Source: a virus. Taken from it: 64,000 nucleotides of DNA. The stretch lies in the IMG/VR virus record IMGVR_UViG_3300025288_000013, positions 46,223 to 110,222 of that record; one strand, 5' to 3'. Below the pieces are notes generated by a model. The model was not told where the DNA came from and did no database searches. It saw only the letters and a list, made by a program, of their open reading frames with translations. Both the position numbers and the translations under genes were made by a program. The stretch's first letter is position 1; every line of letters begins with the position of its first letter. Shown here piece by piece: positions 22,067 to 53,819 of the stretch.

Positions 22067-23488
22067 TTAAAGTTCCTTAACAATTACATTAAGGTCAACA
22101 GTCGCATTTGTTGCATCTGTTGCGTTTCTTATATGTATTTCTATAAAATCATCCAGTGTGTGATCTATCACCCCCATTATTGATATTGGGGTTGCCTTAC
22201 CTACACCATCAGTAGTAACCTTTAATTTTGATGACGGAATAATGCCACTTATTTTGCTATCATATATACCAAATTCAAGGGTTTTATTGTTTCCAGCTGT
22301 AAAACTAATCGTACAATAAACCGCCAATTTTCGTTTTATGGCTGTTTTACACATTAAGTTATTTGATGAATGTGCGTATTTAAACAAAAAACTACCGGCA
22401 ATTGTAGCACCGGCAATTTTTACAAATGATATTGTATCTGGTATAACTGTGGCAACAACGTTGCCAACCATATACATTGTGCCTATCACACTTGTATTGT
22501 CTATTGGACGACAATTGACAAATAATGATTTATCTGATGTGTGATCTATGCCTTGCAGATAAATTCCATTACCGCTAAAATGAATATCATTTAGTATATA
22601 ACTTTCAGAACCAATAACAGTATCAACATTGAAATCTATGCCAATTGCTGTTTCTGTTGGTGCAAATGCTGAATCTGTTACTCTAAATCTTCTATTGATT
22701 GTGGTTGTGGCAAGTGTTTTTAAAATTGTTGTGTTTGATGAAAGGAATAATGCTGTAAAAAATGATATTGTGTTACAAAACCCATCAAAAATTAACCCAC
22801 CACTGTTTATAAATGTTCCATTGCTGAAGATAAAATCAGAAAAATTTTTTATGACACCAATATTGGGACAATTAACAAAACTTACGCCTCTCCATATCAT
22901 GATGGCATTACTTCCGCCAGCACCATCTACACAATTTATGTCAAAAACTTTTGTGATATCTTTTATGGTTATATCTTGTATTGTCAGATCTTTTGTTGAT
23001 GTTATTATGGCGAAATCAGCACCTAAACCAGTTGATGTTATAGAATTACTACCGCCAGCTGTTCCATGAATGACATTGTTTATTCCACAAACTATTCTAT
23101 CACCACCCAAATCTACTGCTTTTGTTACAAAATATGTGATATTGTCAACAAGTGTTATAACACCACCAACCGCTTCTGGGAAATCAAAATTATTATTTAT
23201 CCACACTATGTTTTCTGGAGCATTTCCTGTATTTTGTAATGTTATTGTATTAATACCGTCTGTGTATTTATAAACGTGTTGCGTTGTGTTATACCACAAC
23301 GCACCATCAACCAATACTTCTGGGTCTGTTGCGTATTTCGGTATAACTGACCCTGTTGCTGTTTCTATATCAGAATCAACTTGTGATTTTGTAGTTGGCT
23401 GGCTATTTGTTGTAGCATTTGGTACATTTTCTATTGATTTATTATTTACATCTAATCCGAATATACTTAATTTTCCTCTAATTTTCAT
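22067..23488 (-). CDS. Tail fibre/spike protein (beta-helix-like)
   Basis: Stalk motif I.NV.N......TK.QVD; DFP.AVGGVITL; T/N/I-rich. Confidence 0.65.
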   Translation of the reverse strand: MKIRGKLSIFGLDVNNKSIENVPNATTNSQPTTKSQVDSDIETATGSVIPKYATDPEVLVDGALWYNTTQHVYKYTDGINTITLQNTGNAPENIVWINNNFDFPEAVGGVITLVDNITYFVTKAVDLGGDRIVCGINNVIHGTAGGSNSITSTGLGADFAIITSTKDLTIQDITIKDITKVFDINCVDGAGGSNAIMIWRGVSFVNCPNIGVIKNFSDFIFSNGTFINSGGLIFDGFCNTISFFTALFLSSNTTILKTLATTTINRRFRVTDSAFAPTETAIGIDFNVDTVIGSESYILNDIHFSGNGIYLQGIDHTSDKSLFVNCRPIDNTSVIGTMYMVGNVVATVIPDTISFVKIAGATIAGSFLFKYAHSSNNLMCKTAIKRKLAVYCTISFTAGNNKTLEFGIYDSKISGIIPSSKLKVTTDGVGKATPISIMGVIDHTLDDFIEIHIRNATDATNATVDLNVIVKEL

Positions 23489-37687: not shown

Positions 37688-37704
37688 TGCAAAAATCGTG
37701 CCAA
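37688..37704 (-). promoter_or_regulatory. Class I sigma54-type promoter
   Basis: TTGGCACGATTTTTGCA. Confidence 0.8.
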
Positions 37705-37707
37705 GCT

Positions 37708-37863
37708 TTATTTTGAATTTAAATCTGATAATTCAGACCAAAATAGATACAATATGATACCTAAAGCAATTGTTCGTTGGATACTTTCAATAATAAAATT
37801 TGATAATCCAATAAAAACACCTATTCTAAAAATATATACCAATGGTTTAGTGATTTTATTCAT
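37708..37863 (-). CDS. Small hydrophobic protein
   Basis: 51 aa from MNKITKPL. Confidence 0.45.
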   Translation of the reverse strand: MNKITKPLVYIFRIGVFIGLSNFIIESIQRTIALGIILYLFWSELSDLNSK

Positions 37864-37887
37864 GGTTCCAATTGTTTGTTGTATTTT

Positions 37888-37965
37888 GTAGGAAAGATAG
37901 GACTTGAACCTATCACCTCTTACCAACTTTCATCAATAAGCGTACTGCCCTTATATTATTTCCTA
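37888..37965 (-). tRNA. tRNA-like RNA with atypical anticodon arm (undetermined/pseudo)
   Basis: Acceptor TAGGAAA/TTTCCTA; T arm GATAGG-TTCAAGT-CCTATC; D loop with GG; 22-nt anticodon arm; no encoded CCA. Confidence 0.65.
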
Positions 37966-37970
37966 TGTAA

Positions 37971-38001
37971 AATGAAACCAACTACAATAGTTGGTTTCAT
38001 T
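37971..38001 (-). terminator. Intrinsic terminator hairpin
   Basis: 14-bp perfect stem aatgaaaccaacta/tagttggtttcatt with T tract. Confidence 0.75.
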
Positions 38002-38004
38002 GTT

Positions 38005-38283
38005 TTAACGAATTTCTTCGATTCTTTTCAAAAGATTCTCTTTGGTGTTCTTGTTACTTTTGTAAGCAATTTGAATCTTTTTGTCATCTTTGGCGATTCT
38101 TATGAAGTTTTGACCAAAAGTCACATCATATTTTTTACGCCCCATGAATAAGTCAACTTTGTTTTCTTCTTCATTTTTGATTCTTATGTTAATCCCAAAA
38201 CCCTCTAAAACTGTTGTTAAGCTTTCAGTGGTTTTATCAAAATTAACTGTTTCTTTTACTGTTACTGTTTCTGTTTTTGTCAT
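38005..38283 (-). CDS. Hypothetical protein (paralog family C)
   Basis: FG..F......KIQI.Y.S..NT motif. Confidence 0.75.
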   Translation of the reverse strand: MTKTETVTVKETVNFDKTTESLTTVLEGFGINIRIKNEEENKVDLFMGRKKYDVTFGQNFIRIAKDDKKIQIAYKSNKNTKENLLKRIEEIR

Positions 38284-38345: not shown

Positions 38346-38362
38346 TGCAAAAATCGTGCCAA
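38346..38362 (-). promoter_or_regulatory. Class I sigma54-type promoter
   Basis: TTGGCACGATTTTTGCA. Confidence 0.8.
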
Positions 38363-38365
38363 GCT

Positions 38366-38590: not shown

Positions 38591-38607
38591 TGCAAAAATC
38601 GTGCCAA
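38591..38607 (-). promoter_or_regulatory. Class I sigma54-type promoter
   Basis: TTGGCACGATTTTTGCA. Confidence 0.8.
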
Positions 38608-38634
38608 GCTTTATATAAAACATAAATACTGCCC

Positions 38635-40528: not shown

Positions 40529-40545
40529 TGCAAAAATCGTGCCAA
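40529..40545 (-). promoter_or_regulatory. Class I sigma54-type promoter
   Basis: TTGGCACGATTTTTGCA. Confidence 0.8.
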
Positions 40546-40548
40546 GCT

Positions 40549-46016: not shown

Positions 46017-46628
46017 ATGATGTTGAGTGATCATATAATCAGCGATTTTATAATTCGTTTCTCGGACGATTTCTTTTATGATGATGTTAAGAAAAAATTT
46101 CAAGATTACTTTGATGAAAATAATGGGATCTTTCGTTCTATCACAGATTCGTTTAACGCAACCATCATTGGTACAAATATTCTTGGGTATGATTCACAGT
46201 CAACAAGTCCGCAAGGACACCACAAAGGACAAGTAAGAACATTCCAAAATTCGTTAACCAATATACAAAAACATAAAAAAACACTTGATGTCAGTTTTGC
46301 CCTCAAGTATGGTTTGTTTAATTATTACATGTTATTTGAAAACATCATTCAGTTTAATGAAAATAACATAAATGATGGTATGGATATATTCTTACCACCG
46401 ATAATAATGGATATAATTGATTCTAATGGTAACATTATTTATACATACATTTACAAAGAAATACAAGTGGAAAGTTTGTCTACATTAAGTCTTAAAAAAA
46501 CTGACAATGGTATAGGATCAAAAGAATTTACATGTTCATTTCGATATAACATACTTGACATAAAAACTTATTTAAACAAAGACAAATCAAAAAGTTTAAA
46601 CGATTCATTCAAACACAAATTTAAATGA
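46017..46628 (+). CDS. Tail tube-like/baseplate protein
   Basis: Tube-like C terminus (D.NG....Y.Y......L..L......F.C.F.YN). Confidence 0.5.
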   Translation: MMLSDHIISDFIIRFSDDFFYDDVKKKFQDYFDENNGIFRSITDSFNATIIGTNILGYDSQSTSPQGHHKGQVRTFQNSLTNIQKHKKTLDVSFALKYGLFNYYMLFENIIQFNENNINDGMDIFLPPIIMDIIDSNGNIIYTYIYKEIQVESLSTLSLKKTDNGIGSKEFTCSFRYNILDIKTYLNKDKSKSLNDSFKHKFK

Positions 46629-46981
46629 TAACAATTTTATCAGACAATAGAACCGATCAAAATTATGAACAAAACAAATTTGTGATATCAAATCCAATTA
46701 TCATATATGTTGAACAGATAAAAATGGCTTTACAAAGTGACACGGGTAGTATCATGGGTTCAGAAGATTTTTTTGACTTAGAAGATTTAGTGTTTGAACA
46801 GAATTTAAATGAACAACAAATACAAGACAGAGTTAGACAAACAATATCACATTTTTGTTCATTTTATGAAAATTTTGACACAGAGATTGATGTAAGGTTC
46901 ACAAAAGGAGAAGTTCGTGATATTTGTTTGGTAAATATCACAGTAAATAAAGAACATACATTGAACTTGTTAATTCAATAA
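46625..46981 (+). CDS. Baseplate wedge protein (gp25/GPW-like)
   Basis: 118 aa; QI.M.L....G..MG..DF..LE.L.FE. Confidence 0.6.
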   Translation: MITILSDNRTDQNYEQNKFVISNPIIIYVEQIKMALQSDTGSIMGSEDFFDLEDLVFEQNLNEQQIQDRVRQTISHFCSFYENFDTEIDVRFTKGEVRDICLVNITVNKEHTLNLLIQ

Positions 46982-47149
46982 AACCCCAAGAGTAATTCCA
47001 AGAAATAAAATAACTATTATTGATACCACATATTTGATATTTAATTCTTGTCTGACCCATTTTCTTCTGTTTTTTGTGAAAGAAAAAAAATTGTATACAC
47101 AATAAAATGAAATAACAAATAAAATTATGAACAATAACACTAACATCAT
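46970..47149 (-). CDS. Small two-TM protein
   Basis: Two hydrophobic helices; ATGA overlap. Confidence 0.5.
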   Translation of the reverse strand: MMLVLLFIILFVISFYCVYNFFSFTKNRRKWVRQELNIKYVVSIIVILFLGITLGVLLN

Positions 47150-47565
47150 AAACAAAATAATGATACAACAAACAAGACAGTTCTTGTATACCAATCAAAT
47201 GAAAATATAGAAGTTGTCGTAGTTGATCTATCAAACCAGCCTTTCAAATAAACTGTATTGTTTGATAAAATTTTTCTTGTTTGATAATAAGCACCATCAT
47301 GAATAAATGGAAATGATAAAACAAAAGCAATAGAATAATAAACTGTATCAATAATACCATGTGATACGTATATGGCTAATATGAGTGGCGTAGCCCATAA
47401 AATTCTAACAAAAGTAAAAAGAATATGTATGTTGAATTTCCATTTATCTTTGAATTTTTTATCAAAATCCGCATCATCATGAAAAATTTTGGCTTCAATT
47501 ATACCAAAAGATAATGAAAACCAAATCCAGGTAAAAAAACATATATACATATTATATTGCATCAT
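47146..47565 (-). CDS. Membrane protein
   Basis: Several TM helices; FPF.HDG.YY. Confidence 0.65.
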   Translation of the reverse strand: MMQYNMYICFFTWIWFSLSFGIIEAKIFHDDADFDKKFKDKWKFNIHILFTFVRILWATPLILAIYVSHGIIDTVYYSIAFVLSFPFIHDGAYYQTRKILSNNTVYLKGWFDRSTTTTSIFSFDWYTRTVLFVVSLFCL

Positions 47566-47572
47566 GATTTAT

Positions 47573-47884
47573 TTATTTTTTGCTCCATATTTTACTTGGT
47601 CTAACATCTATTAACAATTCTCCGAAATGTAATTTCATATGGTTTGTTAAAGACGTAAGTTTTCTGTTGTCTTTACCAATCATAATTGATGGTTTATGAC
47701 TTGTTATTTTTATAACAACTTTAGATTTCTTTTTATAAACTTTGACAGACGTAACATATTGATAAGCCAATAAGTCATTTTTTTCCCAAAAATTCATTAA
47801 TTCAACTCTTATTTGTGCTGAATCAATACTATTAGATTTCCATGTTTTGATGAATGATTTAATTGAACGTTTTAACCTTTCCAT
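47573..47884 (-). CDS. Type II KH-domain protein resembling the uS3 N-domain
   Basis: VVIKITSHKPSIMIGKDNRKLTSL vs uS3 I.I...RPG.VIGK.G..I..L. Confidence 0.55.
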   Translation of the reverse strand: MERLKRSIKSFIKTWKSNSIDSAQIRVELMNFWEKNDLLAYQYVTSVKVYKKKSKVVIKITSHKPSIMIGKDNRKLTSLTNHMKLHFGELLIDVRPSKIWSKK

Positions 47885-47917
47885 GTTTTAATAAATGTAG
47901 TTTAATCTTTTAATTTT

Positions 47918-47958
47918 ATTGAAACGAACAAAAATTGGGCAATTTTGTTCGTTTCAAT
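47918..47958. terminator. Long near-perfect hairpin
   Basis: attgaaacgaacaaaa/ttttgttcgtttcaat. Confidence 0.65.
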
Positions 47959-48081
47959 TGGCTGTCGCACTATTTTAGTTCTATAAGCACATGATACGCT
48001 ATGTTTATACTAAATTTCAAGTTTGCTACAAGTAAATTATCTTTGTATCAAGACAAAATACCAACTATCAATTCGTGTATT

Positions 48082-48110
48082 ATAAACTATCCATATCTAT
48101 TGTTGTTACA
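48082..48110 (-). promoter_or_regulatory. Class II promoter TGTAAC-N17-GTTTAT
   Basis: In non-coding region. Confidence 0.7.
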
Positions 48111-48344
48111 GCATATCTAACATATAAGGTAATAATTTGATTATAAAAATAGCACAATCAAAACAAGGGTCAAATTGTTTTGAAAATAATAAAACACCAA
48201 AATCAAATTTGTGATTGCTTTTGAAATAATGCCATGATGTATGTGAGTTATTTTTTTTATTTTTATGTCGCCTATTTTATAGGGTTGCATTTGTGACAGT
48301 TCTATATGATTAGAAAGATTCTGCCTTTCTTGAGTGTTTTTTAC

Positions 48345-48373
48345 TAAAACCAACAATATTTGATTTTGTTACA
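48345..48373 (-). promoter_or_regulatory. Class II promoter TGTAAC-N17-GTTTTA
   Basis: In non-coding region. Confidence 0.6.
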
Positions 48374-48388
48374 ATACCATTTTACCAA

Positions 48389-48430
48389 ATCTTCAGTTTT
48401 GTATGAATTTTTGAATATAAAACTGAAGAT
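48389..48430. terminator. Hairpin, 12-bp perfect arms
   Basis: atcttcagtttt/aaaactgaagat. Confidence 0.5.
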
Positions 48431-48741
48431 ATAAGAACAATATTTAAAGTTATTATATTAAATTATTGTCAGTTTTATAAGCATGATACAACATTGTAAC
48501 ACATTTATAACAAATCTTTGAGTTTTGTTTAAGATTATTGAATTGCATTTTACTGTATCAATACACATTTATAATTAAGCACAATATATGTCCCTTTTAT
48601 TGATTTTGTGTTATAGACACTAACATAGCAGAAATATGGTATTAAAATAATGGTAATATAGAGGAGTTTGTGGGAGATATGTCTGACTAATTTGAGTATG
48701 GGTGTATACAGATATGTTTAAGAACATATTGTTAATACAAT

Positions 48742-49089
48742 CTATTTATTATTTTGGTGAAACTTTGATATAACCGATATATTATCTTTTCCATAAAGTT
48801 CTTCCATAAAACATTTAACATTATCATTTTTACACTGATCAGCAACATATTCAACAAACAATCTGAAATCGTTCTTTGCTAATGCCAATCCAGCTGATAG
48901 ACCGACTATATCTATGTGTTTTGAAATGGATGTTATGGCTTCAATAACCTTTATGTTTTTAACAACCTCATCAATTTGTGATATAGTCATTAATTGTCTT
49001 TGTGAATTTGGAAATTCTCTAAGCGATTTGTCATATAATTTCATTTTTTCTAACTCCAATTCTTCAAGATTTTTTGATATGTGTGCCAT
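48742..49089 (-). CDS. Hypothetical protein
   Basis: 115 aa after class I promoter. Confidence 0.7.
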   Translation of the reverse strand: MAHISKNLEELELEKMKLYDKSLREFPNSQRQLMTISQIDEVVKNIKVIEAITSISKHIDIVGLSAGLALAKNDFRLFVEYVADQCKNDNVKCFMEELYGKDNISVISKFHQNNK

Positions 49090-49115
49090 TTTTATTAAGT
49101 TTATATAAATACACT

Positions 49116-49132
49116 TGCAAAAATCGTGCCAA
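49116..49132 (-). promoter_or_regulatory. Class I sigma54-type promoter
   Basis: TTGGCACGATTTTTGCA. Confidence 0.8.
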
Positions 49133-49135
49133 GTT

Positions 49136-49834
49136 TTATTTTACCAAATGTCTTACACCATTAATTGTTCTTACCAATCTGAACCCCACTTTTGCACACA
49201 TTTGTTTGAGATATGTTTTTGTTTCCAAATCATTGACATTTATAATCCACAAACCCTTATCGTCTTTCTTAAACTCACAATCTTCTGATATCAGTGTTAT
49301 TAATTTATCTCTTTTGATTCGTTGAGATTTTGTCAAACCCTTAGAATTCGATCTATAATGATTAACAACTTCACTGATATTTGATTGTTTTGATATTGGA
49401 CAGACAAAAATTTGCTTAACGGCATCAAATACACAGCCAAGACTTATGAGTTCTTTTGTGAACCCCCAATTGTAATCATCAAGATTTTCGACAACAAATT
49501 GGTCTTTTGATACAACAATTTTCTTTGGTTCAGAAGTTGGTTTATTTTCATTCATAATAATTGGTTGATTAACTTGGTCCTGTACACAAAACAATTTGTT
49601 GAATTTTTGTTGTAAAATTTCATCAGTGTTTTTCTTACTTTTATAACTGATTTGTATCTTGCAATCACCAACAAATACACCAATGAAAGTTGCTCCAAAG
49701 TTTGTTGTACATGTTTTACCATTCATTAGAAATTCGTGCTTACCATCTGATGCCTCTGATATGTAAAACAAAGATTTCACGAATGGTTTAACCTTATTCG
49801 TGAAATCTGATGGTTTTTTTGTAAATTGTAACAT
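49136..49834 (-). CDS. Hypothetical protein (paralog family C domain)
   Basis: FG..F..KIQISYKSKKNT. Confidence 0.75.
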   Translation of the reverse strand: MLQFTKKPSDFTNKVKPFVKSLFYISEASDGKHEFLMNGKTCTTNFGATFIGVFVGDCKIQISYKSKKNTDEILQQKFNKLFCVQDQVNQPIIMNENKPTSEPKKIVVSKDQFVVENLDDYNWGFTKELISLGCVFDAVKQIFVCPISKQSNISEVVNHYRSNSKGLTKSQRIKRDKLITLISEDCEFKKDDKGLWIINVNDLETKTYLKQMCAKVGFRLVRTINGVRHLVK

Positions 49835-49869: not shown

Positions 49870-49886
49870 TGCAAAAATCGTGCCAA
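49870..49886 (-). promoter_or_regulatory. Class I sigma54-type promoter
   Basis: TTGGCACGATTTTTGCA. Confidence 0.8.
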
Positions 49887-49910
49887 GCTTTATGAAAACA
49901 ACTATATTGG

Positions 49911-51898: not shown

Positions 51899-53755
51899 TT
51901 AAAATAATGAATCGTTTTTAACTTCTTTCTTTATAAACTCGTTTTCTAATTCTACCAATGTTATTATTGGTAACCCATTAGCCTTTGCCTTTCTTGTTTT
52001 ACCACTAACAATGTTTTCATTCAATCTCACTACATGTGTCACAGAGTTGTTCCAATTGTCTTGTATTTTGTGACCAGCATTTTCAATAGCTTCAGCTAAT
52101 TTTCCATGAAATCTGCAATTAGTCGGACAATACACATGACCAATAAAATCTTTATCACTTATCGGTTTCTTTATAATGTACCCAAGACTTTCAACTTGTT
52201 TTTTAAATTCCTCATATTTCAATAAACCTTTATCAATTGTACTTGTTGCAAAACTACCAAGACCCTTTGCCTCTATTCCATCAAGTAAATATAATTTTAG
52301 TTTAGTACTACCAAGATTAGGGAAAAAGCCACTTGCAGCCATAAATGTGTGTTCATCAATACCATTTATTGATTTGTTTAATTCGTTTTTAAGTGTTTCA
52401 GCGGTTTTATTACCAAATCCATCATCATTGATAAGTTTGTTAAAATCAAATAAAATCAATTTACTGATTGTATCAATACCATGACTATCAAACATATGTT
52501 CAAGTGTACTTATTCCAAATCCTTTAGCCTTTGTTTTTGTAACAAAATGTTCCATAAGTCTAATGCTTATACCTTTGTTTTGTGAATTGTCTGCAGCTTT
52601 TATGCAAACACCATCCCAAAAGTATTTAAAATCTGGTTCATTGTACTTATCTTGGAAATCTTTTGGAAAGAAATAGATATCTCTGATTTCATCTATTGTA
52701 TGGTTCTTAGAAACTTTTAATAATTCTTTTCTATTTGGTATTTCAACATCTTCAACTGAAACAAGTCTTGGAATTATACCGCCAGATTTTTTCAAACCAA
52801 TTTTAGTTCCAATACCCATTCCAAAGATTTTTACAAACAATTCATTATCAACATTTATATTGGTGATATTAGAACCATCAATGACTGTCGGTTTTATGTT
52901 TAATACAGGGTTGTATACACCATTCTTCGATATTTGTCTTGTTATTCCAATAATTTCTGATTCATAGATATCATCAAATGAAACATGTTTGTATGCCTTT
53001 GATGCTTTTGGATTAATTGTACCAGTTTCACACCCTTGATGTTTACTATTATCAATCAAATCAATAACAACACCATCACAAGGATAAAGCTTCTTCCATG
53101 AATAAAAAACATCTGAAAGAAGTTCATGTGTTAAATCTTTTGAATGAATTGTTTTGAAGATTGTTGAAGATTGTTTCCAATCATTACCGTCATTACCACA
53201 TTTATCAAATGGTACAAATTCAACAAATGACATCAGTTCTTTACTTGGACTTTTTGAATTAAACAGACCGGCAACAGCGTTTCGTGGGTGACTATACTCT
53301 AATGGTTTAAAATGTTTTTCAAAGTTTTCATTTGATATAACAGCCTCACCTCTAAAATAATCTTCTTGAGATAAATGGTGTGATGCGTTTTGGATCAACA
53401 TGAATTGATTGGTAACGATTGTACCTGTTATACCATTTTCGTTTTTTGACATAGCATGACAATTTCCCACTTCTATACTTATACCATCAAGCTTCGGACT
53501 TAATGTCACCATGTCATCATACCCATTTAACCATTTTTTTGTTTCTTCTATTGTTTTTAATTTCTTTAACGAACCCATTTGATGTGGAAGTTTTATAACA
53601 CTTCCATAAGCATAACTTGCCTCAATATCTGGTTTACTACCAAATTCTATGATATACATTTCAACCAATCTGTCGAATTCATAATCAGAAATTTTTGGGA
53701 TTCCTAAACGATAAAGAGTATTATGAGTTATTATTTGTTCTAACAAATTTTCCAT
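51899..53755 (-). CDS. ligA: NAD-dependent DNA ligase
   Basis: Y..G.P.ISD.EFD, MGSL.K, KLDG, RGE, PRN.VAG, DGVVI, OB/HhH, BRCT-like C terminus; start after class I promoter. Confidence 0.93.
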   Translation of the reverse strand: MENLLEQIITHNTLYRLGIPKISDYEFDRLVEMYIIEFGSKPDIEASYAYGSVIKLPHQMGSLKKLKTIEETKKWLNGYDDMVTLSPKLDGISIEVGNCHAMSKNENGITGTIVTNQFMLIQNASHHLSQEDYFRGEAVISNENFEKHFKPLEYSHPRNAVAGLFNSKSPSKELMSFVEFVPFDKCGNDGNDWKQSSTIFKTIHSKDLTHELLSDVFYSWKKLYPCDGVVIDLIDNSKHQGCETGTINPKASKAYKHVSFDDIYESEIIGITRQISKNGVYNPVLNIKPTVIDGSNITNINVDNELFVKIFGMGIGTKIGLKKSGGIIPRLVSVEDVEIPNRKELLKVSKNHTIDEIRDIYFFPKDFQDKYNEPDFKYFWDGVCIKAADNSQNKGISIRLMEHFVTKTKAKGFGISTLEHMFDSHGIDTISKLILFDFNKLINDDGFGNKTAETLKNELNKSINGIDEHTFMAASGFFPNLGSTKLKLYLLDGIEAKGLGSFATSTIDKGLLKYEEFKKQVESLGYIIKKPISDKDFIGHVYCPTNCRFHGKLAEAIENAGHKIQDNWNNSVTHVVRLNENIVSGKTRKAKANGLPIITLVELENEFIKKEVKNDSLF

Positions 53756-53789: not shown

Positions 53790-53806
53790 TGCAAAAATCG
53801 TGCCAA
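53790..53806 (-). promoter_or_regulatory. Class I sigma54-type promoter
   Basis: TTGGCACGATTTTTGCA. Confidence 0.8.
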
Positions 53807-53819
53807 GCTTTATTAGAAA

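Follow-up and report, generated by a model that had tools for sequence, protein, structure and literature searches.

A tRNA-shaped sequence without a canonical anticodon arm between two small phage genes, a possible processing signal

A 78-nt tRNA-shaped sequence was identified on the minus strand (37965-37888) of the window, i.e., the whole 64-kb stretch of phage DNA analyzed here, by reading the window sequence directly. Judging by its sequence, this element is certainly derived from a tRNA. It has lost the canonical anticodon arm, is no ordinary decoder and lies between two small ORFs in a unit bordered by two copies of a promoter motif. We consider it, with a probability of about 0.45, to be a degenerate, non-decoding derivative of a phage tRNA whose upper half would remain a substrate of the host's RNase P and RNase Z in a read-through transcript. 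Transcription through a hairpin directly upstream, cleavage by the two enzymes and a selective value of this cleavage are the parts of this reading which we infer.

The minus-strand reading given in an earlier note on this DNA matches the window sequence exactly, and the acceptor stem of 7 bp and the T stem of 6 bp, which had been called perfect, consist of Watson-Crick pairs only (Table 1). The 22-nt anticodon arm had been described as a 9-bp G-U-rich stem closed by a GNRA loop, and this fold was reproduced by RNAfold, whose minimum-energy structure of the element is cloverleaf-like, includes the 9-bp arm and has an energy of -17.2 kcal/mol. The nine pairs possible in this arm comprise five Watson-Crick and four G-U pairs, capped by the GAAA loop at 37931-37928. 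All stems of the element are intact but for one pair of the D stem. The D region carries U8, A9, A14, GG and A21, and G26 is the next nucleotide after the D arm. The T loop lies in the consensus motif GGTTCAAGTCC (37910-37900), which matches GGTTCRANYCC, and as in a canonical tRNA the series T54-Psi55-C56-R57-A58 with the pair G53-C61 is found together with U8, A14, G18-G19 and A21.

Table 1. Positions of the element's parts and of the neighboring features in the window
Feature	Position	Strand	Description
Acceptor stem	TAGGAAA 37965-37959 with TTTCCTA 37895-37889	-	7 of 7 Watson-Crick pairs
D arm	37956-37942	-	3-bp stem AUAU/GUAC with A10-C25 mismatch; 7-nt loop AAGGGCA
Anticodon arm	37940-37919	-	22 nt, 17 expected
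Variable loop AGGU	37918-37915	-	4 nt
T arm GATAGG-TTCAAGT-CCTATC	37914-37896	-	6 of 6 Watson-Crick pairs
Hairpin	38001-37971	-	Perfect 14-bp stem, 3-nt loop; inverted-repeat search, 100% complementary
92-aa ORF, first gene of the unit	38005-38283	-	ORF list
51-aa ORF	37708-37863	-	ORF list; ATG at 37863
Sigma-54-type promoter core CTTGGCACGATTTTTGCA	38363-38346	-	Exact motif repeat; putative promoter
Next sigma-54-type promoter repeat, end of the unit	37705-37688	-	Exact motif repeat
Seven sigma-54-type cores	37688-37705, 38346-38363, 38591-38608, 40529-40546, 49116-49133, 49870-49887, 53790-53807	-	TGGCACG-N4-TTGCA inside CTTGGCACGATTTTTGCAA

In the most stable register, the acceptor and T stems form a stack of 13 bp (7+6), compared with 12 bp (7+5) in a canonical tRNA. 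With 7+5 pairs, a U7-C66 mismatch would arise, and the acceptor and D stems would be a single nucleotide apart. The 3′ CCA is absent from the encoded sequence of the element. Its GC content is 37% vs. 27% for intergenic DNA, and the z-score of its fold against shuffled sequences is only -1.3. Taken alone, the 22-nt arm is weak, with -3.9 kcal/mol and pair probabilities of about 0.6.

Chance does not account for the element, as follows from a random-sequence test and from its being the sole match to the Rfam tRNA model in the phage record. In the test, 200 Mb of random sequence with the composition of the record were searched for a T loop of the form GTTCRANNC closed by a 5-bp stem and, directly after it, a strand pairing perfectly over 7 bp with a 7-mer located 45-75 nt upstream. 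Such a T arm with a perfect 7-bp acceptor stem occurred in two cases, corresponding to about 0.002 per record, and none of the random cases also carried U8, A14 and GG. The phage record itself contains exactly one such site, which is the element. A chance origin of the element is excluded.

The Rfam tRNA model (RF00005) scores the element with 23.9 bits, which is below the gathering score of 29 bits, and the E-value of this only match is 6e-4 for the whole 110-kb record. ARAGORN with default settings made no tRNA call, either for the window or for the complete record. Only at -ps80 was the element detected, labelled 'tRNA-?', having a 6-nt loop and lacking an anticodon. Among the programs named in the earlier note, Infernal thus returned the element at a sub-gathering score, and ARAGORN at its default settings did not return it. 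YrlA/Y RNA (RF02553) and tmRNA models gave no match in a permissive Rfam scan of 37700-38150 and none at the Rfam gathering thresholds in the whole window, and no tmRNA was found by ARAGORN.

The Infernal alignment takes another register, in which the acceptor strand AGGGCAG starts at 37951 and pairs with one mismatch, GCUU-AUUGAUGA-AAGU takes the role of the D arm, and the deleted anticodon arm is replaced by only 7 nt. This 'armless' register was rejected as the main fold, as it folds at -7.1 kcal/mol with a pair probability of about 0, compared with -15 to -17 kcal/mol, a difference of about 8-10 kcal/mol. Its 5′ features are estimated to arise far more easily by chance.

A BLAST search against 50,697 phage records gave matches which cover the 3′ half of the element only. 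Positions 39-65 of the element are identical in 25 of 27 nucleotides to the tRNA-Asn of Yersinia phage fHe-Yen9-04, and the whole element is colinear with this tRNA-Asn as well as with the tRNA-Asn of a crAss-like Bacteroides phage, save for five extra nucleotides in the anticodon arm. The alignment to tRNA-Asn, the Rfam match and the random-sequence test together back the claim, made before from the letters, of a tRNA-shaped and tRNA-derived sequence. The isotype of origin is not assignable, because the variable loop and the T arm are common to many isotypes (Met, Val, Asn, Ile, Arg, Thr, and Lys tRNAs across bacteria). When four Bacteroidota genomes were searched with a covariance model of the element, the tRNAs it selected were those for Val, Ala, and Met. 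An unannotated tRNA-Asn-like sequence with a GTT anticodon loop was noticed in the crAss-like phage cr106_1 (MT774378.1 near 22850-22930; locus L020, ~109-185), where it adjoins a tRNA-Ala and is not called by ARAGORN.

The window originates from an IMG/VR record of 110 kb, which is about 64% complete and whose sequence occurs in groundwater and aquifer runs. Pfam tallies of its genes include T4-type portal, terminase, gp32, clamp loader, and PolB, and by this gene content the phage looks like a T4-type lytic myovirus. A member of the Bacteroidota is the probable host. The phage genome is 92% coding. Phages commonly integrate into tRNA genes and then carry the 3′ part of the tRNA, and the element might accordingly be pictured as the remnant of an attachment site, with a piece of a host tRNA as the attP core. 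Such a remnant, or a chance look-alike, which the random-sequence test excludes, is hardly credible: the 5′ half of the tRNA is present as well, a search of about 185,000 species genomes gave no exact copy of the 22-nt 3′ end of the element, an integrase is missing from the Pfam tallies of the larger ORFs, and the T4-type genes named above give the record the look of a lytic phage.

As an observation apart from the element, the Pfam matches in the upstream part of the record (G000:C1:1-46400; L141-L143) include adenylosuccinate-synthetase-like, HD-domain, PRA-PH/MazG-like, guanylate kinase, and adenosine-deaminase-like proteins. This gene set corresponds to a PurZ/DatZ/MazZ module, and the phage may therefore replace adenine with 2-aminoadenine in its DNA.

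That the element is non-decoding in the normal way had been proposed before and was borne out by the analysis of the anticodon arm. None of the registers of the 22-nt arm contains a 5-bp stem with a 7-nt loop, and the deletion of any 5 contiguous nucleotides never yields a 5-bp stem with U33. A canonical anticodon arm, consisting of a 5-bp stem and a 7-nt loop with U33 and a purine at position 37, is thus absent, and with a codon-reading arm of the wrong size the element cannot decode. One indel plus one substitution, at the least, could have turned a normal arm into this one.

An unusual decoding tRNA was also considered, since a +1 frameshift suppressor with an 8-nt loop had been mentioned in the earlier note. 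It would read the quadruplet UUUC with the loop A-U-GAAA-G-U, in which U33 precedes and a purine follows the four nucleotides GAAA. This loop is drawable only with a 7-bp stem, and an anticodon stem 2 bp over length displaces the anticodon relative to the tRNA elbow. The 13-bp acceptor/T stack is also non-canonical, and the 9-bp form of the arm is more stable than the form with a 7-bp stem and an 8-nt loop (-3.9 vs. -0.9 kcal/mol). In the whole record, a single gene pair (G000:C1 17531-18460 and 18399-18668) was found to overlap in the +1 frame and to contain an in-frame UUUC. This is at chance level, estimated at ~0.16 per such overlap, and the downstream frame has 90 codons only. The suppressor was dropped as a very improbable reading, and the same small chance is given to decoding as a whole, be it ordinary or quadruplet.

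In the region of this gene pair (G000:C1:17531-18668, plus strand), a 301-aa ORF overlaps the 90-codon +1 open frame, which lacks an early ATG. This frame is probably due to chance or is a small gene with another start. Furthermore, a tRNA-like sequence of 30.7 bits, whose anticodon arm has 29 nt where 17 are normal, was found in a large, uncultured phage (IMGVR_UViG_3300006037_000005:52703-52784; L014:1501-1582, minus strand). It was missed by ARAGORN, and a weaker second one is located at 53418-53482. The same phage also carries the sigma-54 motif and a normal tRNA-Met.

The element is part of a unit which, read along the minus strand, consists of a promoter repeat, the 92-aa ORF, the hairpin, the element, the 51-aa ORF, and the next promoter repeat. 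The sigma-54-type core at the head of the unit would, by its sequence, drive the transcription of the element. Identical cores are present at seven sites in the window, all on the minus strand and ahead of small early-type genes, and each begins about 3 nt past the preceding stop codon. The same spacing is seen at the end of the unit, where the stop codon TAA of the 51-aa ORF lies 3 nt before the next promoter repeat. An early program based on sigma-54 promoters is unusual for a phage and would need an activator.

The hairpin extends from 3 nt past the stop codon of the 92-aa ORF to 5 nt ahead of the element. No other of the 25 longest inverted repeats of the window forms a perfect 14-bp stem with a short loop. 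The earlier note had placed the element 5 nt after a terminator hairpin. Both the hairpin and the 5-nt spacing were found as described, and its designation as a terminator is the note's own inference, as the hairpin was not called in the terminator scan and is followed by UUACAU without a proper U tract. It may act as a weak terminator or as a stem protecting the 3′ end.

The element has no promoter of its own, as the promoter repeats are located only outside the flanking ORFs, and no other promoter motif was seen when the spacer ahead of the 51-aa ORF was read by eye. Lacking its own promoter, the 51-aa ORF is expressible only via transcription through the hairpin and the element. By this arrangement, the element is likely transcribed as part of an mRNA. 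The 51-aa ORF has long hydrophobic stretches and may span the membrane. For the 92-aa protein, one homologue was found (P0002, 63% identical, on a 37.5-kb JGI/ENA contig) and no Pfam or PHROG family above the cut-off. In its AlphaFold model (pLDDT 78.5), a helix is followed by five strands and a second helix, and a search of the PDB gave nothing at E <= 0.001. A role of this neighbor as a tRNA-binding protein, to which a weak Pfam match to the LeuRS editing domain with E 0.016 pointed, was discarded, as this match is below the cut-off and a PDB match is missing.

RNase P and RNase Z require only the acceptor/T-arm helix and the elbow. Since these parts are kept in the element, cuts at both of its ends are expected if it is transcribed. 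According to the preferred reading, the upper half, comprising the acceptor stem, the T arm and the elbow nucleotides of the D and T loops, would have been retained, and the anticodon arm would have been turned into the 22-nt G-U-rich hairpin. The element would be made solely within the read-through transcript of one early unit, between the two small ORFs, and the most likely outcome would be cleavage at both its 5′ and its 3′ end by host RNase P and RNase Z. Such cleavage would leave the upstream mRNA of the 92-aa ORF ending in the 14-bp hairpin and would free the downstream mRNA of the 51-aa ORF with its own 5′ end, a mode of working which can be likened to that of a t-element of plant mitochondria. 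An RNase P/RNase Z processing role, which was among the earlier suggestions, fits the position of the element in the transcription unit. If termination at the hairpin were efficient, little element RNA would be made.

The same features can also be read as those of an inert relic, i.e., of a phage tRNA gene whose anticodon arm was disrupted by an indel and which is decaying, any processing being incidental and of no consequence to the phage. This reading is quite possible, without being the probable one. The 13-bp stack, the A10-C25 mismatch, the weak arm, and the low z-score are all consistent with decay, and the sub-threshold Rfam and ARAGORN scores also speak for it. Since two events could suffice to make the arm, the intact stems say little in favor of selection. 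Furthermore, the element is a lone copy: the covariance model R1 of the element found no second one in the phage's own record, and neither ARAGORN nor Rfam gave another tRNA in the 110 kb of the record, which is about 64% complete, so that the element does not belong to a tRNA cluster there. However, the acceptor and T stems are perfect and all elbow nucleotides are retained. The arm pairs over all 9 positions and is closed by a GNRA loop, and the probability of its four extra pairs arising by chance is estimated at ~0.02. In addition, useless DNA is normally lost fast from a genome with 92% coding density, which argues against very old junk, and the GC content of the element, higher than that of intergenic DNA, also speaks for retention.

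Related loci were searched in viral contigs with the 92-aa, 114-aa, and 953-aa neighbors and with P0002, and only one distant locus (L003, in genome G006) was found. The 3 kb preceding the homologous 114-aa gene contain no tRNA-like sequence there, and ordinary tRNA-Leu and tRNA-Met genes are located elsewhere in this genome. The absence of the element from this locus, the nearest relative examined, is a further point in favor of a relic. The exact 3′ half of the element is absent from the viral contigs, and the scans of metagenome contigs gave no related loci. Metagenome contigs covering the element were obtained from two runs of separate studies (X2, X3), and they are identical to the window without any variation. 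A further contig of run X3, 5.5 kb long, matches window positions 38158-38191. A scan with the promoter motif gave 8 loci, of which one (L006) belongs to a close relative and the rest are unrelated or distant; in these remaining loci the covariance model R1 had no match. L006 (IMGVR_UViG_3300014202_000342, 5.4 kb) is a fragment corresponding to window positions 46017-49834, a region other than that of the element. Its protein identities are 64-95%, mostly 82-95%, showing that the lineage occurs in at least one other sample.

A further reading assigns the element a function in trans, in which the excised RNA would bind or decoy a host tRNA-targeting defense enzyme, a toxin or another tRNA-binding protein. 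The determinants of the L-shape are intact and decoding is abolished, as would suit such a mimic, and phage T4 has tRNA-like stable RNAs whose role is unknown. However, high abundance of the element RNA is not expected, because the element lacks its own promoter and is positioned behind the hairpin. The CCA is not encoded, and an arm without an anticodon loop leaves nothing for an anticodon nuclease to recognize. Genes for tRNA repair or maturation were also not found: RNA ligase, PNK, CCA-adding enzyme, aaRS, PTH2, and integrase gave no match in the ORFs of at least 100 aa of the record, in the small neighbors of the element and in ten ORFs scanned with PHROG, and a PTH2 match was seen neither in the ORFs neighboring the element nor in the Pfam tallies of the larger ORFs. 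A literature search on non-decoding tRNA decoys of phages found nothing specific. A function of this kind is decidedly unlikely. It is unlikely, too, that the element represents a selected non-decoding mimic of an undescribed 'sealed-anticodon' class, which would be excised by RNase P and RNase Z from an early sigma-54 transcript and serve either as mRNA punctuation or as a trans-acting RNA directed at a defense enzyme or tRNA-binding protein of the host.

The importance of the element depends on which of these readings applies. If it is a relic only, it is an ordinary by-product of the turnover of phage tRNA genes and of minor importance. If it is kept as a cutting signal, the phage punctuates its early transcripts via the tRNA-trimming enzymes of its host. 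Punctuation by tRNA enzymes is known from mitochondria and from MALAT1, and to our knowledge, which includes a literature search, it has not been described for phage mRNAs. If the element acts in trans, it adds to the emerging picture of phage RNAs imitating tRNAs. The element is one more data point and provides a clean, short substrate for an RNase P/RNase Z assay.

Among the known systems, the canonical tRNA-Asn of phages (crAss-like Kolpuevirus; Yersinia phage fHe-Yen9-04) is closest in sequence. The sequences are colinear, agree almost completely in the variable loop and T arm and share the pair U1-A72. Unlike canonical phage tRNAs, the element is 5 nt longer, lacks an anticodon loop and has a degenerate D stem. 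One pair is added where its acceptor and T stems meet, and its scores do not reach the Rfam and ARAGORN thresholds.

The RNAs rnaC (species 1) and rnaD (species 2) of phage T4 are likewise phage-encoded and non-decoding, and the record studied here is T4-like in its core genes, too. rnaC, whose function is unknown by annotation and which scores 17.5 bits with the tRNA-Sec model, resembles the element in keeping a tRNA-type acceptor stem and T arm, whereas its core is not that of a tRNA. The T4 RNAs are 119-139 nt long and located inside a tRNA cluster behind tRNA-Arg. In contrast, the element has 78 nt, stands alone between protein genes and shows the full outline of a cloverleaf.

A resemblance of logic only exists to the mascRNA of MALAT1, where RNase P reportedly cuts a tRNA-like structure, said to have been described by Wilusz et al. 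in 2008, and the upstream RNA thereby receives a protected 3′ end. In both cases, the tRNA-like structure is located downstream of a stable RNA structure. The mascRNA is eukaryotic and nuclear with a triple helix as protector, whereas the phage element has a hairpin upstream.

Finally, the t-elements of plant mitochondria are tRNA-derived sequences with a non-canonical cloverleaf, which direct cuts by RNase P and RNase Z and thereby form mRNA ends (Forner et al., 2007, PMC1920247). The motif GGTTCRANYCC is the basis for finding them (PMC1920247). In plants, the RNA ends at t-elements were mapped, whereas the phage element is a predicted processing signal. It also differs from them in being present as a single copy in a phage with a probable Bacteroidota host and in having a closed hairpin directly upstream. 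Like the t-elements, it keeps the GGTTCRANYCC motif of the T arm with the adjoining acceptor stem and is placed next to ORFs in what is likely a longer transcript.
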